NCBI RefSeq assembly: GCF_048403405.1
Contig: NZ_CP183129.1
Reading direction: 5' to 3' (one strand)
Source: Escherichia coli
Lineage (GTDB): Bacteria > Pseudomonadota > Gammaproteobacteria > Enterobacterales > Enterobacteriaceae
DNA length: 64,000 nt
Positions 13,141 to 64,000 of the stretch are shown one piece after another. Under the pieces are notes generated by a model. That model saw only the letters and a list, made by a program, of their open reading frames with translations, was not told where the DNA came from and searched no databases. The position numbers and the translations under genes were made by a program. Numbering within the stretch: position 1 is the stretch's first letter; every line of letters begins with the position of its first letter.

Positions 13141-13168
13141 CGGCTCAGAAATGAGCCGTTTATTTTTC
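13141..13168 (+). terminator. S10 operon terminator
   Basis: cggctcagaaatgagccg hairpin followed by tttattttt. Confidence 0.8.
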
Positions 13169-13169
13169 T

Positions 13170-14526
<1,357 letters not shown>

Positions 14527-17327: not shown

Positions 17328-18807
<1,480 letters not shown>

Positions 18808-30009: not shown

Positions 30010-30528
30010 GTGAATAATAACCTGCAAGGAGACGCTATCGCAGCTGCGATAGATGTTCTCAATGAAGAACGTGTCATCGCCTATCCAACGGAAGCCGTTT
30101 TCGGTGTTGGGTGTGATCCTGATAGCGAAATAGCAGTGATGAGACTGTTGGAGTTAAAACAGCGTCCGGTTGATAAGGGGCTGATTTTAATCGCAGCAAA
30201 TTACGAGCAGCTTAAACCCTATATTGATGACACCATGCTGACTGATGCGCAGCGTGAAACCATTTTTTCCCGCTGGCCAGGTCCTGTCACCTTTGTCTTT
30301 CCCGCGCCTGCGACAACACCGCGCTGGTTGACGGGCCGCTTTGATTCGCTTGCTGTACGAGTCACCGACCATCCGTTGGTGGTTGCTTTGTGCCAGGCTT
30401 ATGGTAAACCGCTGGTTTCTACCAGTGCCAACTTGAGTGGATTGCCACCTTGTCGAACAGTAGACGAAGTTCGCGCACAATTTGGCGCGGCGTTCCCGGT
30501 TGTGCCTGGTGAAACGGGGGGCGTTTAA
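30010..30528 (+). CDS. tsaC: tRNA threonylcarbamoyladenosine biosynthesis protein TsaC (YrdC), C-terminus apparently truncated by a frameshift in a G-run
   Basis: GTG start giving [39 protein letters not shown]...; ORF stops after GETGGV, while the +1 frame continues with a plausible 18-aa tail ending at 30578 just before the aroE start. Confidence 0.85.
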
Positions 30529-30585
30529 ATCCTTCAGAAATCCGCGATGCCCTGACGGGTGAACTGTTTCGACAGGGGTAACATA

Positions 30586-31404
30586 ATGGAAACCTATGCT
30601 GTTTTTGGTAATCCGATAGCCCACAGCAAATCGCCATTCATTCATCAGCAATTTGCTCAGCAACTGAATATTGAACATCCCTATGGGCGCGTGTTGGCAC
30701 CCATCAATGATTTCATCAACACACTGAACGCTTTCTTTAGTGCTGGTGGTAAAGGTGCGAATGTGACGGTACCTTTTAAAGAAGAGGCTTTTGCCAGAGC
30801 GGATGAGCTTACTGAACGGGCAGCGTTGGCTGGTGCTGTTAATACCCTCAAGCGGTTAGAAGATGGACGCCTGCTGGGTGACAATACCGATGGTATAGGT
30901 TTGTTAAGCGATCTGGAACGTCTGTCTTTTATCCGTCCTGGTTTACGTATTCTGCTCATTGGCGCTGGTGGAGCATCTCGCGGCGTACTACTGCCACTCC
31001 TTTCCCTGGACTGTGCGGTGACAATCACTAATCGGACGGTATCTCGCGCAGAAGAGTTGACTAAATTGTTTGCGCACACTGGCAGTATTCAGGCGTTGGG
31101 TATGGACGAACTGGAAGGTCATGAGTTTGATCTCATTATTAATGCAACATCCAGTGGCATCAGTGGTGATATTCCGGCGATCCCGTCATCGCTCATTCAT
31201 CCTGGCATTTATTGCTATGACATGTTCTATCAGAAAGGAAAAACTCCTTTTCTGGCATGGTGTGAGCAGCGAGGCTCAAAGCGTAATGCTGATGGTTTAG
31301 GAATGCTGGTGGCACAGGCGGCTCATGCCTTCCTTCTTTGGCATGGCGTTCTGCCTGATGTAGAACCGGTCATCAAACTATTGCAACAGGAGTTGTCAGC
31401 GTGA
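30586..31404 (+). CDS. aroE: shikimate dehydrogenase
   Basis: 272 aa from internal Met [35 protein letters not shown]... Confidence 0.97.
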
Positions 31405-43293: not shown

Positions 43294-46200
43294 TTATCCT
43301 TTAAAGCAACGGCGGATCACCACAAAGAACACCGGCACGAAGAAGATTGCCAGCAACGTTGCAGAAACCATCCCGCCCATTACCCCGATACCCACTGCGT
43401 TCTGCGCGCCACTGCCGGCACCGTTACTGATAGCTAGCGGTAATACGCCGAGAATAAAGGCGAGAGAGGTCATCAGGATAGGACGCAGGCGCATACGTAC
43501 TGCCATCAGTGTCGCTTCAACAACACCTTTACCCTCTTTCTCCATGAGATCTTTAGCGAACTCAACAATCAAAATAGCGTTTTTAGCCGACAAGCCAATT
43601 GTCGTTAGCAAGCCCACCATAAAGTAGACGTCATTTTTTTGATTAAAGAGTGTCGCCGCCAGTAGCACGCCGACAATCCCTAACGGCACGACCAACATAA
43701 CCGAGACAGGAATTGACCAGCTTTCATAGAGTGCAGCAAGGCACAGGAAAACAACCACAAAGGAAATTGCTACCAGAGCGGGAGCCTGGTTTCCCGATAA
43801 GCGTTCCTGATATGACATACCCGTCCAGTCATAATCAATGCCAGCTGGTAATTGTGATGCAAGGTTTTCCATCAACGCCATGGCATCGCCGGAACTGGTT
43901 CCTGGCGCGGCTTCCCCCTGAATCTCCATTGACGGCAGACCGTTGTAGCGCTCCAGTCGCGGAGAGCCATACACCCAATGTGCAGTGGTAAAGGCCGAGA
44001 ATGGCACCATTTCGCCGTTGGCGCTGCGGACATAAAGTTTATCGACATCTTCTGGCAGCATACGGAATTTGGCATCCGCCTGAACATACACCTTTTTCAC
44101 GCGACCACGGTCAATGAAGTCGTTAACGTAAGTCCCACCCAACGCCGTTGAAATGGTCTGATTGATGTCAGAAAGTGAAACACCTAATGCCTGCGCCTTT
44201 TCCTGGTCAACTTCCAGTTTAAACTGCGCGGTGTCTTCCAGACCATTAGGACGCACGCTGACTAAGCTGGCAGGATGTTGCGCCGCCATACCAAGCAACT
44301 GGTTACGGGCCTGGGTTAGGGCATCGTGACCCAGCCCAGCCTGATCAATTAACTCAAAGTCGAAACCCGTTGCCGTGCCCAGTTCAACAATGGCTGGCAT
44401 ATTGAATGGAATGACAAAACCGTCGCGGATCTTGCCCAATTCCATTTTGGCGCGATGGATTACCGCTTCCGCACTGTTTTCGTCACCACTACGCTCTTCC
44501 CACGGTTTCAGACTGACGAAGGCCATACCGGCGTTTTGTGCCTGGCCGCTGAAGCTAAAACCGTTAACCGTAAAGACACTTTCAACGTTCGCTTTTTCGT
44601 TTTTCAGATAGTAATCCGTCACTTGATCCAACACTTTTTGCGTCCGCTCTTGCGTCGCGCCAGCGGGTAACTGAATCATGGTCAGAAAGACACCCTGATC
44701 CTCTTCAGGTAAGAAGGAAGACGGAAGGCGTAAAAACAACACCACCATTCCTGCAACAATCAGCGCATAGATCAGTAAATATCGTCCTGTGGAACCGAGG
44801 ATTTTGCCGACGCTGTTGGTGTAGTGGTTAACGCTATGATCGAAGGTGGTATTAAACCAGCCGAAGAAACTGCCCTTATTTTCGTGATGCTCAGCAGAGA
44901 CGGGTTTAAGCAGCGTTGCACATAACGCAGGGGTAAGAATCAATGCCACCAGAACAGAAAGCGCCATTGCCGAAACGATGGTGATAGAGAACTGGCGATA
45001 AATTGCCCCAGTAGAACCGCCGAAGAATGCCATCGGAATAAATACCGCTGACAGCACCATCGCGATACCCACCAGTGCGCCCTGAATTTGCGACATTGAT
45101 TTTTCCGTCGCTTCTTTTGGCGGGAGCTTATCCTCCATCATCACGCGCTCGACGTTCTCCACCACCACTATCGCATCATCGACGAGCAGCCCGATGGCAA
45201 GCACCATCCCGAACATCGTTAGTGTGTTGATGGAGTAACCAAAAGCGGCGAGGATGGCAAACGTCCCTAACAACACTACGGGTACCGCAATGGTGGGGAT
45301 CAGCGTTGCTCGCATATTCTGCAAGAACAGATACATCACCAGGAACACCAGCATAATGGCTTCGAACAGCGTTTTTACCACTTCGTGAATAGAAAGCTGG
45401 ACGAATGGTGTGGTGTCATAAGGGTAGAGAACCTTCATTCCCTGCGGGAAGAATGGCTGTAATTCCGCCAGTTTTGCCTTAATGGCTTTCGCGGTATCGA
45501 GAGCATTCGCGCCGGTTGCCAGCTTAATACCCAGGCCCGCCGCCGGTTTACCGTTGATGCGAGCGATAACGTTATAGTTTTCACCGCCAAGTTCAACCCG
45601 TGCGACATCTTTCAGGCGTACCACCGAGCCGTCACTGTTTACGCGCAAGGTCACTTTGCCGAATTCTTCCGGATTTTTTAACCGCGTCTGAGCAATAATC
45701 GAGGCGTTCAACTGTTGCCCTGGTAACGCTGGCGTTCCGCCCAACTGTCCGGCAGCGATCTGATCGTTCTGTACCTTCAACTGGTTAATCACATCAACCG
45801 GCGTCAGTTTGTATTTGTTTAGCAGATCGGCGTCCAACCAGATACGCATCGCATACTGTGCGCCGAAAAGTTGTACGTCACCGACGCCATTCAGACGGCT
45901 AAGCGTATCTTTAACGTTAGAGGCCACATAGTCCGAGATATCGTCCTGTGTGGTGCCTGGGTTATCAGAGACAAAGCCCGCCACCATCAAATAGCTGCTA
46001 CTGGACTTTTCAACACTGATCCCCTGCTGCTGTACCTCCTGCGGCAGCAACGGCGTGGCGAGCTGGAGTTTGTTCTGCACCTGCACTTGCGCGATATCTG
46101 GATCGGTCCCGGACTGGAAGGTAAGGGTAATTGTCACGCTACCGGCGGAATCGCTGGTGGAGGACATATACATCAGGTTATCGATACCATTCATATTCTG

Positions 46201-46398
46201 TTCGATAACCTGCGTCACCGTATCCTGCACAGTCTGCGCATCAGCGCCCGGATAGTTTGCCGAAACAGAAACTGCAGGCGGCGCAATGGTTGGGTATTGG
46301 GCGACGGGCAATTGTAGGATCGCCAGTACACCCGCCATCATCAGAATAATGGCCAGCACCCATGCAAATATCGGTCGTCGAATAAAAAAGTTTGCCAT
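43294..46398 (-). CDS. acrF: RND multidrug efflux pump inner-membrane transporter AcrF
   Basis: 1034 aa [52 protein letters not shown]... (AcrB-family). Confidence 0.96.
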
Positions 46399-46409
46399 GT
46401 CAGATTGCC

Positions 46410-56196: not shown

Positions 56197-56457
56197 ATGC
56201 CGATTCTGACGCATGAAATAAACAATTATTTTGATCAATTCGGACTTCATGATATTGCTTCAATGCCTACCACTCAGTACCGTCAGGCCCTTGCAAATGG
56301 TGGTTTACTGTGGATTGATCATCATGATTTTATTCGTAGCACGCTATCAGATGAAATCCTTGCAACAAATCAAGAGCAGGTTAATGTTTTGATTGAGCAT
56401 TTGCAGGTTTTAAGGAAAAAAATGCCACTACCTCCTAATTGGATGAGTGAGAAATGA
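56197..56457 (+). CDS. hypothetical protein
   Basis: 86 aa; AT-rich; convergent with the minus-strand cargo pair. Confidence 0.5.
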   Translation: MPILTHEINNYFDQFGLHDIASMPTTQYRQALANGGLLWIDHHDFIRSTLSDEILATNQEQVNVLIEHLQVLRKKMPLPPNWMSEK

Positions 56458-56491
56458 ATTATATGGCCTGGCTCTTTGCCAGGCCATATAC

Positions 56492-57001
56492 TCAAAGCAT
56501 TGTTAACAAGGCGGACGCACCAGCACCAACGAGACTGGCTACCGTACTATTATTTAGTAAATCCTTAAGCAAATTTTTTGCCTGAGGATCTTGTGATTGA
56601 GAAACTTTTTCAACAAGTTCAGTTATGCTGAGATTTACAATAAGATTGTTATGCTCACCGAGTTGAACCTGTGTACCGGATATGTTACCAATGTTAAATG
56701 TATTTTGGCTAGATTGTTTTGGTTTATGTTCATTAGCAGTCAGATTCTCGACTTTTAATGTAAGCATGTGAGGGTGATTAGTACCAACATTGAGTGTACC
56801 TCCTGGTAAAAATGACATATCAATTACTTTTAATATTATTTCCCCCTTCCCTAGTTTTTGAGTGATTTCATCTCCAATATTAATATCTGGTTCTTCAGTA
56901 TAAGGGATTAGCACTTTTTTTTCAGCTGAGTTTCTTTTCCCCTTGTATTCAACTCCTGCGATTGTGAATTTTTCTGGATATGCCATGACGTTAAGATCCA
57001 T
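56492..57001 (-). CDS. hypothetical cargo protein B (shared C-terminal module, hydrophobic C-terminal tail)
   Basis: 169 aa in markedly AT-rich DNA; C-terminus QNTFNIGNISGTQVQLGEHNNLIVNLSITELVEK...AKNLLKDLLNNSTVASLVGAGASALLTML parallels the C-terminus of the upstream gene. Confidence 0.7.
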   Translation of the reverse strand: MDLNVMAYPEKFTIAGVEYKGKRNSAEKKVLIPYTEEPDINIGDEITQKLGKGEIILKVIDMSFLPGGTLNVGTNHPHMLTLKVENLTANEHKPKQSSQNTFNIGNISGTQVQLGEHNNLIVNLSITELVEKVSQSQDPQAKNLLKDLLNNSTVASLVGAGASALLTML

Positions 57002-57030
57002 TATGTTGCTCCTCGTGATCGCTTTTGCGT

Positions 57031-57807
57031 TTAACTAGTAGATTTGAAAGTGTATTTTGTCTGTGTGTTAAGGTTTGATATTAGAGCTTCATAGTTTTCT
57101 TTACTCAGTAAGTTTTTTGAGTAGGCCTTCTTAAGAAGGTTTTTTGAGAGAGTAATAATTTCTTTTTCACCAGTTGATGCAATTTTTGAGAAGAACTCAG
57201 AGAGCTCTTGTATATTAATATTGTTATTTGTACCAAGTTGTACGTATTGGCTATTTACAGTAGCTATGTTGAATATGTTTTGTTTTGGATGCGTTTTTTT
57301 TAGCTTTTCAATTTCAGCATGTTCTATGATTTTTTGAGAGATACTTTCAATATAACCACTAACGTCTTTTTTTTCTGGGAAGGAAAACCCATCACCTCTT
57401 AATATTTTATCTGTTTCGGCCATTTCATAGTAAAGCCTGCGAATCATCACAAGTAATAGTAATTTAGCCTCCTCGATTGACTCCTCTATTGAGAATTGAC
57501 ATTCAATTGCTAACGCGGAGGTCTGCTCTAAAACAATTTCTGAGTTATTTTCAATGTAAGGATTGATAAAACCATTCCAAAAAATTTGAACGGGAGTACC
57601 TTTAAATGCCAAACCTTGATAGCATATTTCTGTTCCATCATATGCAGTAACTTTCATGGGGGGGCCTGCATTGAAAAATCGCCATCTATGAATCAGTTTG
57701 GTTAATCTTTCGTCAATCTCCCGAACTAATTTATAAGTCCTTTTGAACAATGGGGATGGTCGCATCCCAGGAACAGCAAGAATTTCTTTTGTCACTTGAA
57801 TCTCCAT
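57031..57807 (-). CDS. hypothetical cargo protein A (shared C-terminal module)
   Basis: 258 aa uninterrupted ORF in AT-rich DNA (unlikely by chance); 29 bp upstream of protein B on the same strand; C-terminus QNIFNIATVNSQYVQLGTNNNINIQELSEFF...SKNLLKKAY. Confidence 0.7.
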   Translation of the reverse strand: MEIQVTKEILAVPGMRPSPLFKRTYKLVREIDERLTKLIHRWRFFNAGPPMKVTAYDGTEICYQGLAFKGTPVQIFWNGFINPYIENNSEIVLEQTSALAIECQFSIEESIEEAKLLLLVMIRRLYYEMAETDKILRGDGFSFPEKKDVSGYIESISQKIIEHAEIEKLKKTHPKQNIFNIATVNSQYVQLGTNNNINIQELSEFFSKIASTGEKEIITLSKNLLKKAYSKNLLSKENYEALISNLNTQTKYTFKSTS

Positions 57808-58054
57808 AGTTTATCAGCATTTTTGTAAATTATTTGTGTGTTAACATTCAAGACTGTTCGTAACAAAAATACCTTATTTACATCAATTTTTTGATCCATA
57901 TCTTAAATAGTGGCACTCAGACGTGAGCCGCCACTGTTGCCGTCCGATCCCCTGCGCGATGCCGGGTTGATCTGCGAGATGCCGAGAGTGTCGGGCGGCG
58001 CTCCCTCCGTGTTGGTTTCACGTCCTGAATCTTAACCAATACGAGAAAACCTTC

Positions 58055-59224
58055 ATGAAGAAATTAATCGAGCTCCGCCAGCAAAAAAACGCCCTGAAAA
58101 ACCAGATGCGATCCCTGCTGGAAAAAGCCGACAGTGAAAACCGCAGCCTGAACGATGACGAGGGCAAACAGTTTGATGAACTGCGTGCAAAAGCTGATTC
58201 CCTCGATACAGACATTTCCCGCCTCGAGTCTGTGGCTGATGAAGAACGCAGCAAGCCAGGAACGGGCATCCAGAAAGTATCATCTGATGAATTGCGTAAC
58301 TACATCGTAACCGGAGATGTGCGATCTCTGTCCACCAGCACTGACAGCGGCAGGGATGGCGGATATACCGTAATTCCTGAGCTTGATCGCGAAGTCATGC
58401 GCCAGCTACAGGATGACAGTGTTATGCGCGTGATCGCGACCGTGAAGACTGCAAAATCAAATGAGTTTCAGAAACTGGTTTCCACTGGCGGCGCAACTGT
58501 AGGACGAGGCACAGAAGGCAGCGCACGCAGTGAAACCAACACCCCGAAAATTGAACGCGTAACCATCAAGCTGAACCCGATCTACGCCTACCCGAAAACC
58601 ACGCAGGAAATCCTAGATTTTTCAGAGGTGGATATTCTGGGCTGGTTATCCTCCGAAATTGCCGACACGTTCGCCAGCACCGAAGAGGATGATTTTGTTA
58701 ATGGCAACGGTAACGGCAAGCCGAAAGGCTTCATGGCTTACACCCGTGCGGCGACCAGTGACAAAACCCGCGCTTTTGGCACCATTGAAAAAATGGTAGC
58801 GGCAAGTGGAACCGCCATTACAGCGGACGAACTGATCGACATTCTCTACAAGCTGAAAGCGAAATACCGCAAAAATGCCGTCTGGGTGATGAACTCGGGC
58901 ACGGCAGGGACACTACAGAAGCTGAAAAATGAGAACGGCGATTATATCTGGCGCGACAGCCTTAAAGAAGGTGCGCCGGATATGTTGCTTGGTCGTCCTG
59001 TTTACTGCCTGGAGTCCATGCCGGACATCGGCGCAGGAAAAGCACCGCTAGCGGTTGGCGATTTCAGTCGTGGTTATTTCATCGTTGATCATGTAACAGG
59101 GATTCGCACCCGACCGGACAACATTACTGAACCCGGATTCTACAAGGTCCACACGGATAAATATCTGGGCGGTGGTGTGGTGGATTCAAACGCCATCAAA
59201 ATTCTGGAAATGAAAGCTGGCTAG
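58055..59224 (+). CDS. major capsid protein, HK97-fold, with N-terminal scaffolding (delta) domain
   Basis: 389 aa; N-terminal coiled-coil MKKLIELRQQKNALKNQMRSLLEKADSENRSL..., then HK97-family capsid body (GKPKGFMAYT..., LLGRPVYCLESMPD...). Confidence 0.88.
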   Translation: MKKLIELRQQKNALKNQMRSLLEKADSENRSLNDDEGKQFDELRAKADSLDTDISRLESVADEERSKPGTGIQKVSSDELRNYIVTGDVRSLSTSTDSGRDGGYTVIPELDREVMRQLQDDSVMRVIATVKTAKSNEFQKLVSTGGATVGRGTEGSARSETNTPKIERVTIKLNPIYAYPKTTQEILDFSEVDILGWLSSEIADTFASTEEDDFVNGNGNGKPKGFMAYTRAATSDKTRAFGTIEKMVAASGTAITADELIDILYKLKAKYRKNAVWVMNSGTAGTLQKLKNENGDYIWRDSLKEGAPDMLLGRPVYCLESMPDIGAGKAPLAVGDFSRGYFIVDHVTGIRTRPDNITEPGFYKVHTDKYLGGGVVDSNAIKILEMKAG

Positions 59225-59278
59225 TCATGAGTAAGGAGGAGGCTGCGGCCTCCTTTTTCAGCTTTATGGAGTACACCG

Positions 59279-59839
59279 ATGAAAAACACCGATTTTGAAA
59301 TCCGCACATCTGAACTGACCGCCAGCAATAAAAAGCTGGTGGGGTATGCCGTTCGCTGGAACAGCCTTTCAGAAATTATCTGGGACGAATTCCGCGAACA
59401 GTTCACGCCGGGGGCTTTTGCTGACTATCTGGCGGCGGGTAATGATGTGCGCTGCCTGTATGAGCATGACTATACCCAACTGCTGGGGCGCACCAAATCC
59501 GGCACTCTGGTACTGACTGAGGATAACACCGGGTTACGTTTTGAACTGACACCGCCGGATACCCAGCTTGGAAAAGATGTGCTTACGCTGGTGGAGCGTG
59601 GCGACATTACAGGAATGAGCTTTGGTTTTCGCGCATTATGCGAGGAGTGGAGTATCGCGCAAAAACCGTATTTGCGTACCGTAACCGCCGCTGAACTCCG
59701 TGAAATCACAATAACGTCGATGCCTGCTTATCCAGAATCTGGCGTGGAGATTGCCCACCGTTCGTTGTTTGCACAGCACCCTGAATTATGCCCGACAGGA
59801 AATAATCGTCATCGCTGGTCTGAGCTGGCGGGGTTGTGA
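59279..59839 (+). CDS. prohead maturation protease (HK97 family)
   Basis: 186 aa; KLVGYAVRWNS...FREQFTPGAF...LYEHD...LGRT...GTLVLTEDNTGLRFE...GMSFGF pattern typical of HK97-type prohead proteases. Confidence 0.85.
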   Translation: MKNTDFEIRTSELTASNKKLVGYAVRWNSLSEIIWDEFREQFTPGAFADYLAAGNDVRCLYEHDYTQLLGRTKSGTLVLTEDNTGLRFELTPPDTQLGKDVLTLVERGDITGMSFGFRALCEEWSIAQKPYLRTVTAAELREITITSMPAYPESGVEIAHRSLFAQHPELCPTGNNRHRWSELAGL

Positions 59840-59840
59840 T

Positions 59841-61055
59841 ATGTGGTGGCCTTTTAGTCGTAAAAAAAGCGAGCAGCGTAACCTGTCCATTGATGATTTT
59901 CTGGCGCTGTCCGGCGTACCGAATACCGGATCCGGAGAATATGTTTCTGCCGGGACGGCTGAATCATTGCCTGCAGTGATGAATGCGGTTTCTGTCATCG
60001 CTGAGGCGGTGGCCACGATGCCGTGTTATCTGTATCTGGTACGTAATGACAAGGGCAGGGAGGCGCGGGAATGGCTGGACAGTCACCCGGTAGATATTCT
60101 GCTGAATGAGCAGCCTAATTCGTGCCAGACACCTTACCAGTTTAAACGCACAATGATGCGTCACTGCCTGCTGAACGGTAACGCCTATGCGGTTATTGAG
60201 TGGGGGCAGGACGGGCAGCCAAAATCACTTCATCCTTATGCGCCGGGGTGTGTTGTACCGGAACGCACAGGCGCACACAAATACCGCTATACCATCACCG
60301 AACCCTATACAGGAACGGTGCGCACGTATTTACAGGAAGAAGTTCTGCATCTCCGCTATGCCTCGGATGATGGCTTTCTGGGGCGCTCCCCCGTCACGAT
60401 TTGCCGTGAGGCACTTGGGCTTGGCCTTGCTCAACAGCGCCACGGAGCCAGCATTATGAAAGATGGCATGATGGCGGCAGGGATTATCACGTCAGGCGAA
60501 TGGCTGGACGGCGTGAAAGGTAAACAGGCATTGGATGCTCTGGAACGCTACAAGGGGGCGAAAAATGCCGGAAAAACGCCAATCCTTGAAGGGGGCATGG
60601 ATTACAGGCAACTGGGAATGAGTAACCAGGATGCGGAATGGCTGGCCTCCCGTCGCTTCTCCATTGAAGACATCGCCCGCATGTTCAACGTATCGCCTAT
60701 TTTTCTGCAGGAATACAGCAACAGCACCTACAGCAATTTCAGCGAGGCAAGCCGCGCGTTTCTGACCATGACAATGCGCCCGTGGCTGGCGAACTTCGAA
60801 CAGCAAATCAAGGCCGCTTTGCTGGTGGCTTCTCCCGTACCTGGTACCCGTTATCTGGTTGAGTTTGATTCAGCCGATTTATTACGCGCCACACCCACCG
60901 AACGTTATGCCACGTATGAGAAAGGGATTAAGAACGGGATCATGAATCCGAACGAAGCCCGTGAGCGTGAGGGTATGCCGCCGCGTGAAGGTGGTGATGA
61001 GTTCAGCCAGGCATGGAAACAGACTGTGGAAATTAAAGGGAGAAAAGATGAGTGA
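59841..61055 (+). CDS. portal protein (HK97 family)
   Basis: ORF 59751-61055; start at Met 59841 directly after protease stop; ~404 aa with portal-like central region. Confidence 0.8.
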   Translation: MWWPFSRKKSEQRNLSIDDFLALSGVPNTGSGEYVSAGTAESLPAVMNAVSVIAEAVATMPCYLYLVRNDKGREAREWLDSHPVDILLNEQPNSCQTPYQFKRTMMRHCLLNGNAYAVIEWGQDGQPKSLHPYAPGCVVPERTGAHKYRYTITEPYTGTVRTYLQEEVLHLRYASDDGFLGRSPVTICREALGLGLAQQRHGASIMKDGMMAAGIITSGEWLDGVKGKQALDALERYKGAKNAGKTPILEGGMDYRQLGMSNQDAEWLASRRFSIEDIARMFNVSPIFLQEYSNSTYSNFSEASRAFLTMTMRPWLANFEQQIKAALLVASPVPGTRYLVEFDSADLLRATPTERYATYEKGIKNGIMNPNEAREREGMPPREGGDEFSQAWKQTVEIKGRKDE

Positions 61056-61350
61056 AGCCAGAATTACACCTGATGAAGTCAGGGCACATCTTCGACTTGA
61101 TGATGATTTATCCGGTGAAGGCGAACTTCTGAAAATGTATACCGATGCGGCGCTGGAAGCCTGCCAGAAGCATATCGGGAAACGTTTTGAAGACGGGCTG
61201 GAATTTACCCCGGCAATGCGTGTTGGTTGCCTGATGTACATCGCTTTCCTGTACGAGAACCGGGAAGCGGTTTCACCAGTGGAGCACTCGGAACTGCCTA
61301 TGGCTATTTCTGCGCTCTGGTCAGTTTATCGTGACGTAGGGGTGTACTGA
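61048..61350 (+). CDS. head-tail connector (gp6-like) protein
   Basis: ORF 60961-61350; start at MSEARITPDEVRAHLRLDDDLSGEGELLKMYTDAALEACQKHIGKRFE... overlapping portal stop; ~100 aa. Confidence 0.7.
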   Translation: MSEARITPDEVRAHLRLDDDLSGEGELLKMYTDAALEACQKHIGKRFEDGLEFTPAMRVGCLMYIAFLYENREAVSPVEHSELPMAISALWSVYRDVGVY

Positions 61351-61790
61351 TGCCGTGGCAACCATTAAGGCGATGCACTGAGCCTGGCTGTAATAAGCGC
61401 GTGAAGTCCGGCAAGTGTGAAGAGCACAGGCGGGCTGCATGGCGTGCAGAGGATGCCAGACGGGGACACCGCCGCGCGCGCGGGTATTCCCGACAGTGGG
61501 ACAAATACCGCGCCCTGTACCTGAGCAAAAACCCGTTATGCGTGCGTTGTCTGGCTAAGGGGATTTATACGCCAGCTCTTGTGGTGGATCACATCATTCC
61601 CATCAATGGCGGCGGTGATGTTCTCTTCTGGCCTGAGTGGAATCACCAGGCATTGTGCCAGACGTGCCACAACCGTAAGACGACACGGGAAGATCCAGCC
61701 ACGAAAGCAAACCGTAAAGCGGGCATGTATCACGAGCAGGAAGAACGGGCGGCACACCGTAACGACTGGATGTATGGCGATGATGACTGA
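61350..61790 (+). CDS. HNH endonuclease (terminase-associated)
   Basis: 146 aa; Cys-rich with HNH core (VVDHIIPINGGGD...NHQALCQTCHNRKT); sits immediately upstream of terS as in cos-packaging HK97-like phages. Confidence 0.85.
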   Translation: MPWQPLRRCTEPGCNKRVKSGKCEEHRRAAWRAEDARRGHRRARGYSRQWDKYRALYLSKNPLCVRCLAKGIYTPALVVDHIIPINGGGDVLFWPEWNHQALCQTCHNRKTTREDPATKANRKAGMYHEQEERAAHRNDWMYGDDD

Positions 61791-62078
61791 ACAGGAGCAA
61801 ACCAGGCTGATACGTGGACTGATAAGGCAGCGTGACACATGGAAGACACAGGAGACAGAGCACAAAGCCAACAGGACAGGGCGCACAAAACTCACCACAG
61901 CGAAGCGATTAACCGACCGTGACCGCGAGGTCATGGAATGTTTTCGCAATCGCTGGTGAGGCCGTCAGAGGGGGTGGGGGTGGTTTTCAGGACGAAACCG
62001 TCCCTGCCGGACACCGACCGCCCCCTCAAATTTTTGTGCACGGTAATTTTTTTGAAAATAATTGGGCGAAAAAAGAAC

Positions 62079-62435
62079 ATGGCAAGACCACCAAAAGCCC
62101 CCGCTTACCTGGATGAAATCGCGGTCAGGCAGTGGAAGGAAAAATCGCGCCAGCTTTCCGGGCGGGAAGACCTTACCCCCGCCGACTGGAGCAATCTGGA
62201 ACTGTATTGTGTTAACTACTCCATATACCGCAAAGCCGTCGAAGACCTTGCGACGCGCGGGTTCAGCATTGTTAACAGTCAGGGCAGCGAGAGCAGAAAC
62301 CCCGCACTGAGCGCAAAGGCTGACGCAGAAAGAATAATGATCAAAATGGCTTCTTTGCTGGGTTTTGACCCGGTAAGCCGTCGCAGAAATCCACCGGAAA
62401 CAGAGGAAGAGGACGAACTTGACCGCCTGGCATGA
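62079..62435 (+). CDS. terS: terminase small subunit (P27-like)
   Basis: ORF 61938-62435; start at MARPPKAPAYLDEIAVRQWKEKSRQLSGREDLTPADWSNLELYCVNYSIYRKAVEDL... Confidence 0.8.
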   Translation: MARPPKAPAYLDEIAVRQWKEKSRQLSGREDLTPADWSNLELYCVNYSIYRKAVEDLATRGFSIVNSQGSESRNPALSAKADAERIMIKMASLLGFDPVSRRRNPPETEEEDELDRLA

Positions 62436-64000
62436 GTACGCAGAAGGCGTAAAAAACGGCAAAATTACGGCCTGTAAACGACTGAAACAGGCCGTTAAAC
62501 GGTATTTTTCTGACCTTGAAAACTCCCTTTACACGTTCGATCCGGAGGTCGTGGAGCGGTTTATTGCCTTTTCCCGGGTGTGTCCGCACGTAAAAGGCGC
62601 AATGCGCGGTAGTCCCATTGAACTGGAGCCGTGGCAGCAGTTCGCCTTTGCCTGCATCCTGGGCTTTAAGGTTAAGGCCACCGGACGGCGCAAATACACC
62701 AGCGCATTCATTGAAGTACCGCGAAAAAATGCCAAATCCACGGTCGCCGCTATCCTGGCTAACTGGTTTCTGGTTATGGAAAACGGGCAGCAGGATATTT
62801 ACACCGCCGCCGTGAGTCGTGATCAGGCGCGGATCGTGTTTGATGATGCGCGTCAGATGTGCCTTTTATCCCGACCGTTACGAAAGCGGGTAAATATTCA
62901 GGCACACAAGGTGATACACCCGAAAACTAACAGCCTGTTAAAGCCACTGGCAGCAAAAGCGGCAACCATTGAAGGTACAAATCCGAGTCTTGCCATTGTG
63001 GATGAATATCACCTGCACCCTGACAACGGGGTTTATTCCGCACTTGAGCTGGGGATGGGGGCGCGTCCGGAGGGGCTGTTATTTGCCATCACCACATCGG
63101 GGAGCAACGTTGTTTCAGCCTGTAAACAACACTATGACTATTGCTGTCAGATACTGGATGGTGAAGAGATGAACGAATCCATGTTCGTTCTGATTTACGA
63201 GCTGGATGATGAAAGCGAGGTTGACGATCCGGCCATGTGGATAAAGGCGAATCCAAATATCGATGTTTCCGTCGATCGTGAAAAACTGGCCTCAACCATC
63301 CAGAAAGCGCGGGGTATTCCGTCGCAGTGGGTGGAAATGCTCACCAAGCGATTCAATATCTGGTGTCAGGGGGCTACGCCGTGGATGGGTAACGGTGCAT
63401 GGGCGGAGTGCGCCGGAACGTTCGCGGAGGCGGATTTATACGGGCAGGAGTGCTACGCGGGACTGGACTTATCATCAACCAGCGATATTTCCAGCGTGTG
63501 CTATGCCTTTCCGGTCGGTAAAAAGATTATGCTGGTTTCCCGTCACTATCTGCCGGAATTTCAGCTACAGAACCCCGCCAATAAAAACCGCGCCATCTAT
63601 CGCCAGTGGGTAAAGGCGGGCTGGATACGCACAACACCGGGTGACTGCATTGATTATGACCGTATCCGTGATGACATCATGGCGGATGCAGAGAATTTCA
63701 ATATCAGGCTGGTGGGCTTCGATACATGGAACGCCACGCACCTGAGGACGCAGCTACAGGGGGCAGGATTTGAGGTGGAGCCGTTCCCGCAAACATACCT
63801 TCGTTTCAGTCCGGCGGCGAAATCGTTCGAAGTTTTTGTTAACCGGAAGGTGATTGTGCATCGTGGTGATCCGGTGCTGGCCTGGTCAATGAGTAATGTT
63901 GTGATGCAGAGTGACGCGAACGCCAATATCAAGCCGAACAAGAAAAAATCATCCAACAAGATAGACCCGAGCGTTGCGGCGCTGATGGCGTTTGGCACAT
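62419..64000 (+). CDS. terL: terminase large subunit (partial; runs off window end)
   Basis: Open frame from a TTG at 62419 to the window end with no stop (hence absent from the ORF track); hand translation TAWHEYAEGVKNGKITACKRLKQAVKRYFSDL...AILANWFLVMENGQQDIYTAAVSRDQAR...LAIVDEYHLHPDNG shows terminase ATPase features. Confidence 0.75.
   Translation, partial: MTAWHEYAEGVKNGKITACKRLKQAVKRYFSDLENSLYTFDPEVVERFIAFSRVCPHVKGAMRGSPIELEPWQQFAFACILGFKVKATGRRKYTSAFIEVPRKNAKSTVAAILANWFLVMENGQQDIYTAAVSRDQARIVFDDARQMCLLSRPLRKRVNIQAHKVIHPKTNSLLKPLAAKAATIEGTNPSLAIVDEYHLHPDNGVYSALELGMGARPEGLLFAITTSGSNVVSACKQHYDYCCQILDGEEMNESMFVLIYELDDESEVDDPAMWIKANPNIDVSVDREKLASTIQKARGIPSQWVEMLTKRFNIWCQGATPWMGNGAWAECAGTFAEADLYGQECYAGLDLSSTSDISSVCYAFPVGKKIMLVSRHYLPEFQLQNPANKNRAIYRQWVKAGWIRTTPGDCIDYDRIRDDIMADAENFNIRLVGFDTWNATHLRTQLQGAGFEVEPFPQTYLRFSPAAKSFEVFVNRKVIVHRGDPVLAWSMSNVVMQSDANANIKPNKKKSSNKIDPSVAALMAFGT

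Follow-up and report, generated by a model that had tools for sequence, protein, structure and literature searches.

Apparent truncation of tsaC in an Escherichia coli genome: a probable one-base undercount of a G-run in the assembly

Results

The tsaC gene of the window, a 64,000-nt stretch of the E. coli chromosome (assembly GCF_048403405.1, contig NZ_CP183129.1), looks truncated by a frameshift. This truncation is most likely an assembly artefact, a one-base undercount of a run of seven G's (G7), with the gene intact in the organism; we put the probability of this reading at almost nine in ten. A sequencing error is strongly favoured on the basis of the distribution of alleles among genomes, the co-occurrence of two deletions, the grouping of carriers by project, the platform on which two of the carriers were sequenced and how well the lost tail is conserved.

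The tsaC locus

The genes in this part of the window are arranged in the order dprA-smg-yrdD-tsaC-aroE-yrdB beside an rRNA operon. The tsaC frame reads ...VVPGETGGV and is then interrupted by a stop codon, whereas the native C-terminus is encoded in another frame that ends immediately upstream of aroE (Table 1). When one G is inserted, the product is a protein of 190 aa. It exactly matches a catalogued E. coli TsaC sequence and can be aligned over its full length with the solved structures of E. coli TsaC/YrdC, 2MX1 and 1HRU. Reference genomes have GGGGGGG at the run, and their remaining bases are identical to those of the window over the aligned stretch of 120 nt. The tail 3' of the shift shows no decay at all. 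The pattern is that of a homopolymer artefact: the change is a single nucleotide within the run, the nearest relatives have the longer run, and the downstream frame is whole.

Most of the original prediction thus stands. The gene is tsaC, its frame ends after ...PGETGGV at position 30528, a coherent 18-residue tail continues in the other frame up to the start of aroE, one nucleotide is missing from the G-run, and the suggested alignment with reference tsaC genes reveals G7 and, over the 120 nt aligned, no other difference. The run had been placed at about 30515-30520, which is off by one. The prediction left open whether the truncation was a sequencing error or a tolerated loss of the C-terminus. 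The former is strongly favoured, as the six-G allele (G6) is rare, occurs in unrelated lineages, is grouped by project, is accompanied by a second homopolymer deletion and has two Nanopore-only carriers; the latter is disfavoured by the conservation of the tail.

Upstream of the G-run, at a distance of 7 nt, lies a CCTGG sequence, the Dcm methylation motif. Nanopore base-calling is known to suffer from methylated motifs. One possibility, a speculation from the local sequence, is that this motif contributes to context-specific Nanopore miscalling of the run.

Table 1. Features of the tsaC locus and of the second homopolymer deletion (positions in the window)
Feature	Coordinates	Strand	Comment
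tsaC, frame as written	30010..30528	+	GTG start at 30010; 171 native codons and Val; premature TAA at 30526-30528 (172 codons)
CCTGG, Dcm motif	30505..30509
G6 homopolymer	30516..30521	+	One G short of G7, found in 5014 complete E. coli genomes and the nearest relative
Native C-terminal tail of TsaC, shifted frame	30525..30581	+	18 residues and TAA (30579-30581, 4 nt before the aroE ATG); intact; sequence as in 2MX1/1HRU
tsaC, full extent	30010..30581	+	190 codons with the seventh G put back; same span in the RefSeq annotation of other E. coli genomes
aroE, downstream gene	30586..31404	+	ATG start 4 nt past the native tsaC stop
T5 instead of T6	13163..13167	+	T-tract after a terminator-like hairpin, AAACGGCTCA-gaaa-TGAGCCGTTT, between rpsQ and rplN

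Alleles of the G-run in E. coli genomes

Alleles were counted by short exact queries across the run (an exact 70-mer for G7) in 5426 complete RefSeq genomes of E. coli. G7 is present in 5014 genomes, G6 in 51 and G8 in 1, so that the ratio of G6 to G8 is 51:1; the remaining genomes, without an exact match, differ by SNPs in the flanks. RefSeq labels the G6 allele in other genomes as a pseudogene, "tsaC, frameshifted". The G6 carriers do not form a clade. Their genomes are from 4.5 to 5.5 Mb in size and belong to K-12-sized strains, including a derivative of DH5alpha, and to APEC, ETEC and one O145 strain. At the same time, the carriers cluster in accession series representing individual sequencing projects.

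The length variants G6, G7 and G8 are thus all present in the databases, as could be the case if the run were a phase-variable contingency tract switching tsaC between ON (G7) and OFF (G6). We consider this extremely improbable: the gene is essential, the tract is short, and the variants are strongly deletion-biased, track project and platform and are joined by a deletion in another homopolymer.

Another explanation is a genuine and very recent replication slippage from G7 to G6, with the TsaC(1-171)+V product either keeping enough activity or being tolerated at the price of slow growth. A run of seven G's is a plausible site for such events, and the allele recurs in 51 complete genomes, one of which (TUM24769) comes from a hybrid, Illumina-polished workflow. 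However, the close relatives of the carriers have G7, so each case would be a separate very recent event, and the ratio of 51:1 fits deletion-biased base-calling. Judging from mutation-accumulation work, slippage at 7-nt runs in repair-proficient E. coli is far too slow for such events to be seen in about 1% of genomes. This explanation is unlikely.

The surroundings of tsaC were considered in several carriers. In CUVET16-321 and CRE444, no CDS other than tsaC is frameshifted within +/-20 kb, and longer A/T runs, of 7-8 nt, are spared. These two assemblies are thus not of poor quality overall, and the error has to be specific to the site. In TUM24769 there is one more frameshifted CDS within about +/-20 kb, the gene of an amino-acid ABC transporter binding protein, which we take to be the known K-12 pseudogene yhdW. 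The local pseudogene load was also tried as a gauge of assembly quality in these three genomes. It proved non-discriminating, tsaC being the sole unexpected frameshift each time.

The nearest relative and the second deletion

The nearest complete genome is that of strain MS 69-1, which carries G7 at the tsaC run and in which tsaC is annotated as intact. Over about 59.3 kb (47,350 and 11,923 aligned bases), the window differs from MS 69-1 by two SNPs, at positions 13353 and 57564, and by the loss of one nucleotide in each of two homopolymers, the G-run of tsaC (G7 to G6) and a T-run at 13163 (T6 to T5). Such a 1:1 ratio of homopolymer deletions to SNPs is unusual for the divergence of close E. 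coli relatives and resembles residual consensus errors. The SNP at 13353 is synonymous in rplN, GGT in the window and GGG in MS 69-1, and splits a G6 run of the relative. The only larger difference between the window and MS 69-1 is an indel of 4.7 kb.

The T5 allele is rare as well, with exact matches in 79 of 5425 genomes. Among the matches listed, at least 22 of 40 G6 carriers are also found among 60 T5 carriers, compared with about 0.4-0.7 expected of two independent events (hypergeometric P~1e-34). The G6/T5 carriers form groups by accession series or project: CUVET16 (four genomes), CRE (four), UID/UCPROB (six), CP1272-1273xx (four), B1.H1/A1.S1 (three) and the 2013C/2014C strains (three). 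Most of the other carriers come from the same projects as the double carriers. Strain CRE444 is only 98.7% identical to MS 69-1. Yet it has exactly these two deletions and, leaving aside the rRNA operon, no further homopolymer change over 37 kb. The T6 run is hit, whereas neighbouring A/T runs of 7-8 nt are spared. Being rare and shared by the assemblies with G6, the T5 at 13163-13167 is probably a second base-calling error.

Shared ancestry cannot explain the double deletion, because MS 69-1, the closest relative of the window, has neither of them. A mutator strain deficient in mismatch repair was considered as a source of both deletions and rejected: unrelated strains are affected at the very same two sites, and longer runs nearby are untouched. 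On the other hand, a context-dependent base-calling error specific to a platform or pipeline accounts for the paired deletions where both ancestry and mutators fail. The co-occurrence with an unrelated T-run deletion and the association with specific projects also speak against replication slippage at tsaC, as they would not be expected from biology.

Sequencing platforms of the carriers

[quoted passage not shown] Systematic short-deletion errors of nanopore data have been described (PMC11927395). A literature search on Nanopore-frameshifted pseudogenes in E. coli yielded nothing useful, and of six carrier names looked up in the literature for their platform, two gave a result. The exception is TUM24769, the DH5alpha derivative (NZ_CP188169.1, tsaC at 17527-18098), which has G6, lacks the T5 deletion and was assembled by a hybrid workflow from Illumina and Nanopore R10.4.1 reads. 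It is the one documented G6 carrier that is not Nanopore-only. Apart from this hybrid assembly, the G6 allele shows recurrence in unrelated lineages, grouping by project or platform, and a companion homopolymer deletion.

Conservation of the lost tail

Both versions of the product match the Sua5_yciO_yrdC domain (PF01300), the ORF as truncated with E = 1.1e-44 and, once repaired, with 3.7e-46. However, residues 16-190 of the repaired protein cover positions 2-178 of the 178 in the profile, whereas the truncated protein stops at position 149. The domain is thus incomplete in the frame as written, where profile positions 150-178, including S176 and R188, are missing.

The conservation of the tail was analyzed in an alignment of 118 proteins, each representing a cluster formed at 50% identity; they are 40-66% identical and 176-200 aa long. 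All but one of them (117) reach E. coli position 188 or beyond. TsaC orthologues therefore do not end where the frame of the window ends, which disfavours a tolerated truncation. The tail positions conserved are P175 (in 98 of 118 proteins), S/T176 (114), I178 (109), D180 (91), T/S183 (105) and R188 (115). S/T176 and R188 are about as conserved as the catalytic residues K50, R52, S139 and N141 (116-117 of 118). The shifted-frame tail of the window retains P175, S176, I178, D180, T183, G184 and R188.

The KxR...SxN tetrad (K50, R52, S139, N141) is present in the ORF of the window and kept in the truncated product. It separates TsaC from the paralogue YciO, in which it is absent. The retention of this ATP-binding tetrad is consistent with a real truncation by slippage, as is the report that the last approximately 20 residues of the E. 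coli protein form a flexible arm affected by ATP binding. On the other hand, the lost tail holds the near-invariant S/T176 and R188. In Pa-Sua5, T33, S181 and R195 bind threonine and are part of the set of residues reported to be required for TC-AMP synthesis in yeast Sua5. Judging from the numbering offset and the conservation, S181 and R195 of Pa-Sua5 would correspond to S176 and R188 of the E. coli protein. A phmmer search of PDB chains with the C-terminal 59 residues of TsaC reached no Sua5 chain, and only MTH1692 was found, with the PS motif aligned.

The gene yrdC/tsaC is essential in E. coli (PMC4615747). The tail being near-invariant at S/T176 and R188, and tsaC essential, a genuine loss of the C-terminus should be severely deleterious, which in turn argues that tsaC is intact in the cell and weakens the case for replication slippage.

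It could also be suggested that G6 is real and that full-length TsaC is nonetheless made during expression, either through a -1 slip of tRNA-Gly in the ribosome on G GGG GGC or through slippage in transcription. Indeed, the heptamer formally fits X XXY YYZ, and a P-site slip by -1, from GGG at 30517-30519 to 30516-30518, re-pairs perfectly and regenerates the exact wild-type ...TGGRLNPSE. However, the gene is in a single frame in more than 98% of genomes (5014 in frame and 51 shifted), and thus there is no conserved frameshift. For the 78 nt downstream, the predicted fold (MFE -14.8 kcal/mol, z = +0.25) is no more stable than those of shuffled sequences, leaving no stimulatory structure there. 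G GGG GGC is, to our knowledge, not one of the heptamers that work efficiently in E. coli, and a run of six G's is too short for efficient slippage of RNA polymerase. The evidence for an artefact applies equally here. Such recoding is very improbable.

The truncated product in a wider protein collection

In the index of a protein collection, the exact 172-aa product occurs on 221 blocks, compared with 12,538 for the full-length allele. Blocks below 20 kb account for 86% of the truncated and 36% of the full-length occurrences (odds ratio 11, P~1e-53). On contigs of 2-20 kb, 3-5% of the occurrences are truncated, compared with 0.5% on contigs of 20-50 kb and 0.9% above 1 Mb; among the 2349 blocks with contigs of 50 kb-1 Mb, the truncated allele was not found (0/2349). 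The 20-50 kb class includes 24 blocks with the truncated allele. This dependence on contig size would be expected if the allele stemmed from long-read data, with complete long-read genomes on the one hand and noisy reads broken up by k-mer assembly on the other.

An integrase-led island in the same window

A separate observation concerns positions 49975-~62600 of the window, between yhdJ and fis, occupied by an integrase-led island. It encodes a DNA primase, an HK97-type major capsid protein, a prohead protease, a portal protein, a head-tail connector, an HNH endonuclease and the small and large terminase subunits. No tail genes are annotated within the island. By its gene content, it looks like a capsid-forming phage satellite (PICI-like element). 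The region 44000-64000 is rare: of the 5426 complete E. coli genomes, just 18 have at least 80% of it. The 4.7-kb segment absent from MS 69-1 (47351-52077) includes the 5' end of acrE, acrS, yhdJ, the integrase of the island and the next ORF. In MS 69-1, acrE is annotated as partial, which indicates either a deletion in that strain or an assembly difference.

Discussion

The most probable reading is that the tsaC of this organism would be an ordinary intact gene of 190 codons, encoding L-threonylcarbamoyladenylate synthase (type 1 TsaC). G7 would have been called as G6 by a systematic, context-specific homopolymer undercall in a long-read consensus without full short-read correction. Undercalls of this kind are typical of Oxford Nanopore-type consensus and less often of PacBio. 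The same assembly would also have undercalled the T6 run 17 kb upstream, and we infer that the window itself comes from an assembly made by such a long-read route.

The repaired product of the window, at 190 aa, shares about 98% identity with the protein of strain K-12 for which the E. coli TsaC structures were solved (YrdC; 1HRU, 2MX1; PF01300). The gene order yrdD-tsaC-aroE-yrdB and the tetrad K50-x-R52 / S139-x-N141 are common to both; the window as written differs in that its frame ends at residue 171 and V. The Sua5/TsaC2 proteins (Pa-Sua5, 6F87; St-Sua5, 2EQA) have a homologous, TsaC-like catalytic domain, whereas the E. coli protein is single-domain, with neither the linker nor the SUA5 domain. 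The allele resembles the long-read homopolymer undercalls that NCBI PGAP annotates as "frameshifted" pseudogenes in having a single-base deletion in a run, an intact downstream frame, recurrence and grouping by project. Unlike them, the error in the window is site-specific and not purely length-driven.

Several points go against an artefact. These are the hybrid assembly of TUM24769, the 24 blocks with contigs of 20-50 kb, the longer runs that are spared, and the nature of G7 as a genuine slippage hotspot. There is a small chance that some E. coli isolates, perhaps this one among them, really carry G6. A universally conserved enzyme of t6A tRNA modification would then do without its last 19 residues, Arg188 included, or be rescued by low-level -1 slippage. 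If so, the G7 tract would be a weak point of an essential gene, hit by mutation again and again.

The pair of deletions, in the G-run of tsaC and in the T-run at 13163, is a quality flag, marking a consensus of long reads in which some site-specific homopolymer errors are left. Any further frameshift by one base in the same assembly is to be distrusted until checked. This spurious tsaC pseudogene is present in about 1% of "complete" RefSeq genomes of E. coli, and such pseudogenes could mislead analyses of pseudogenes, essential genes and pan-genomes. For the biology of this genome the frameshift has little meaning, and its tsaC should be treated as intact.
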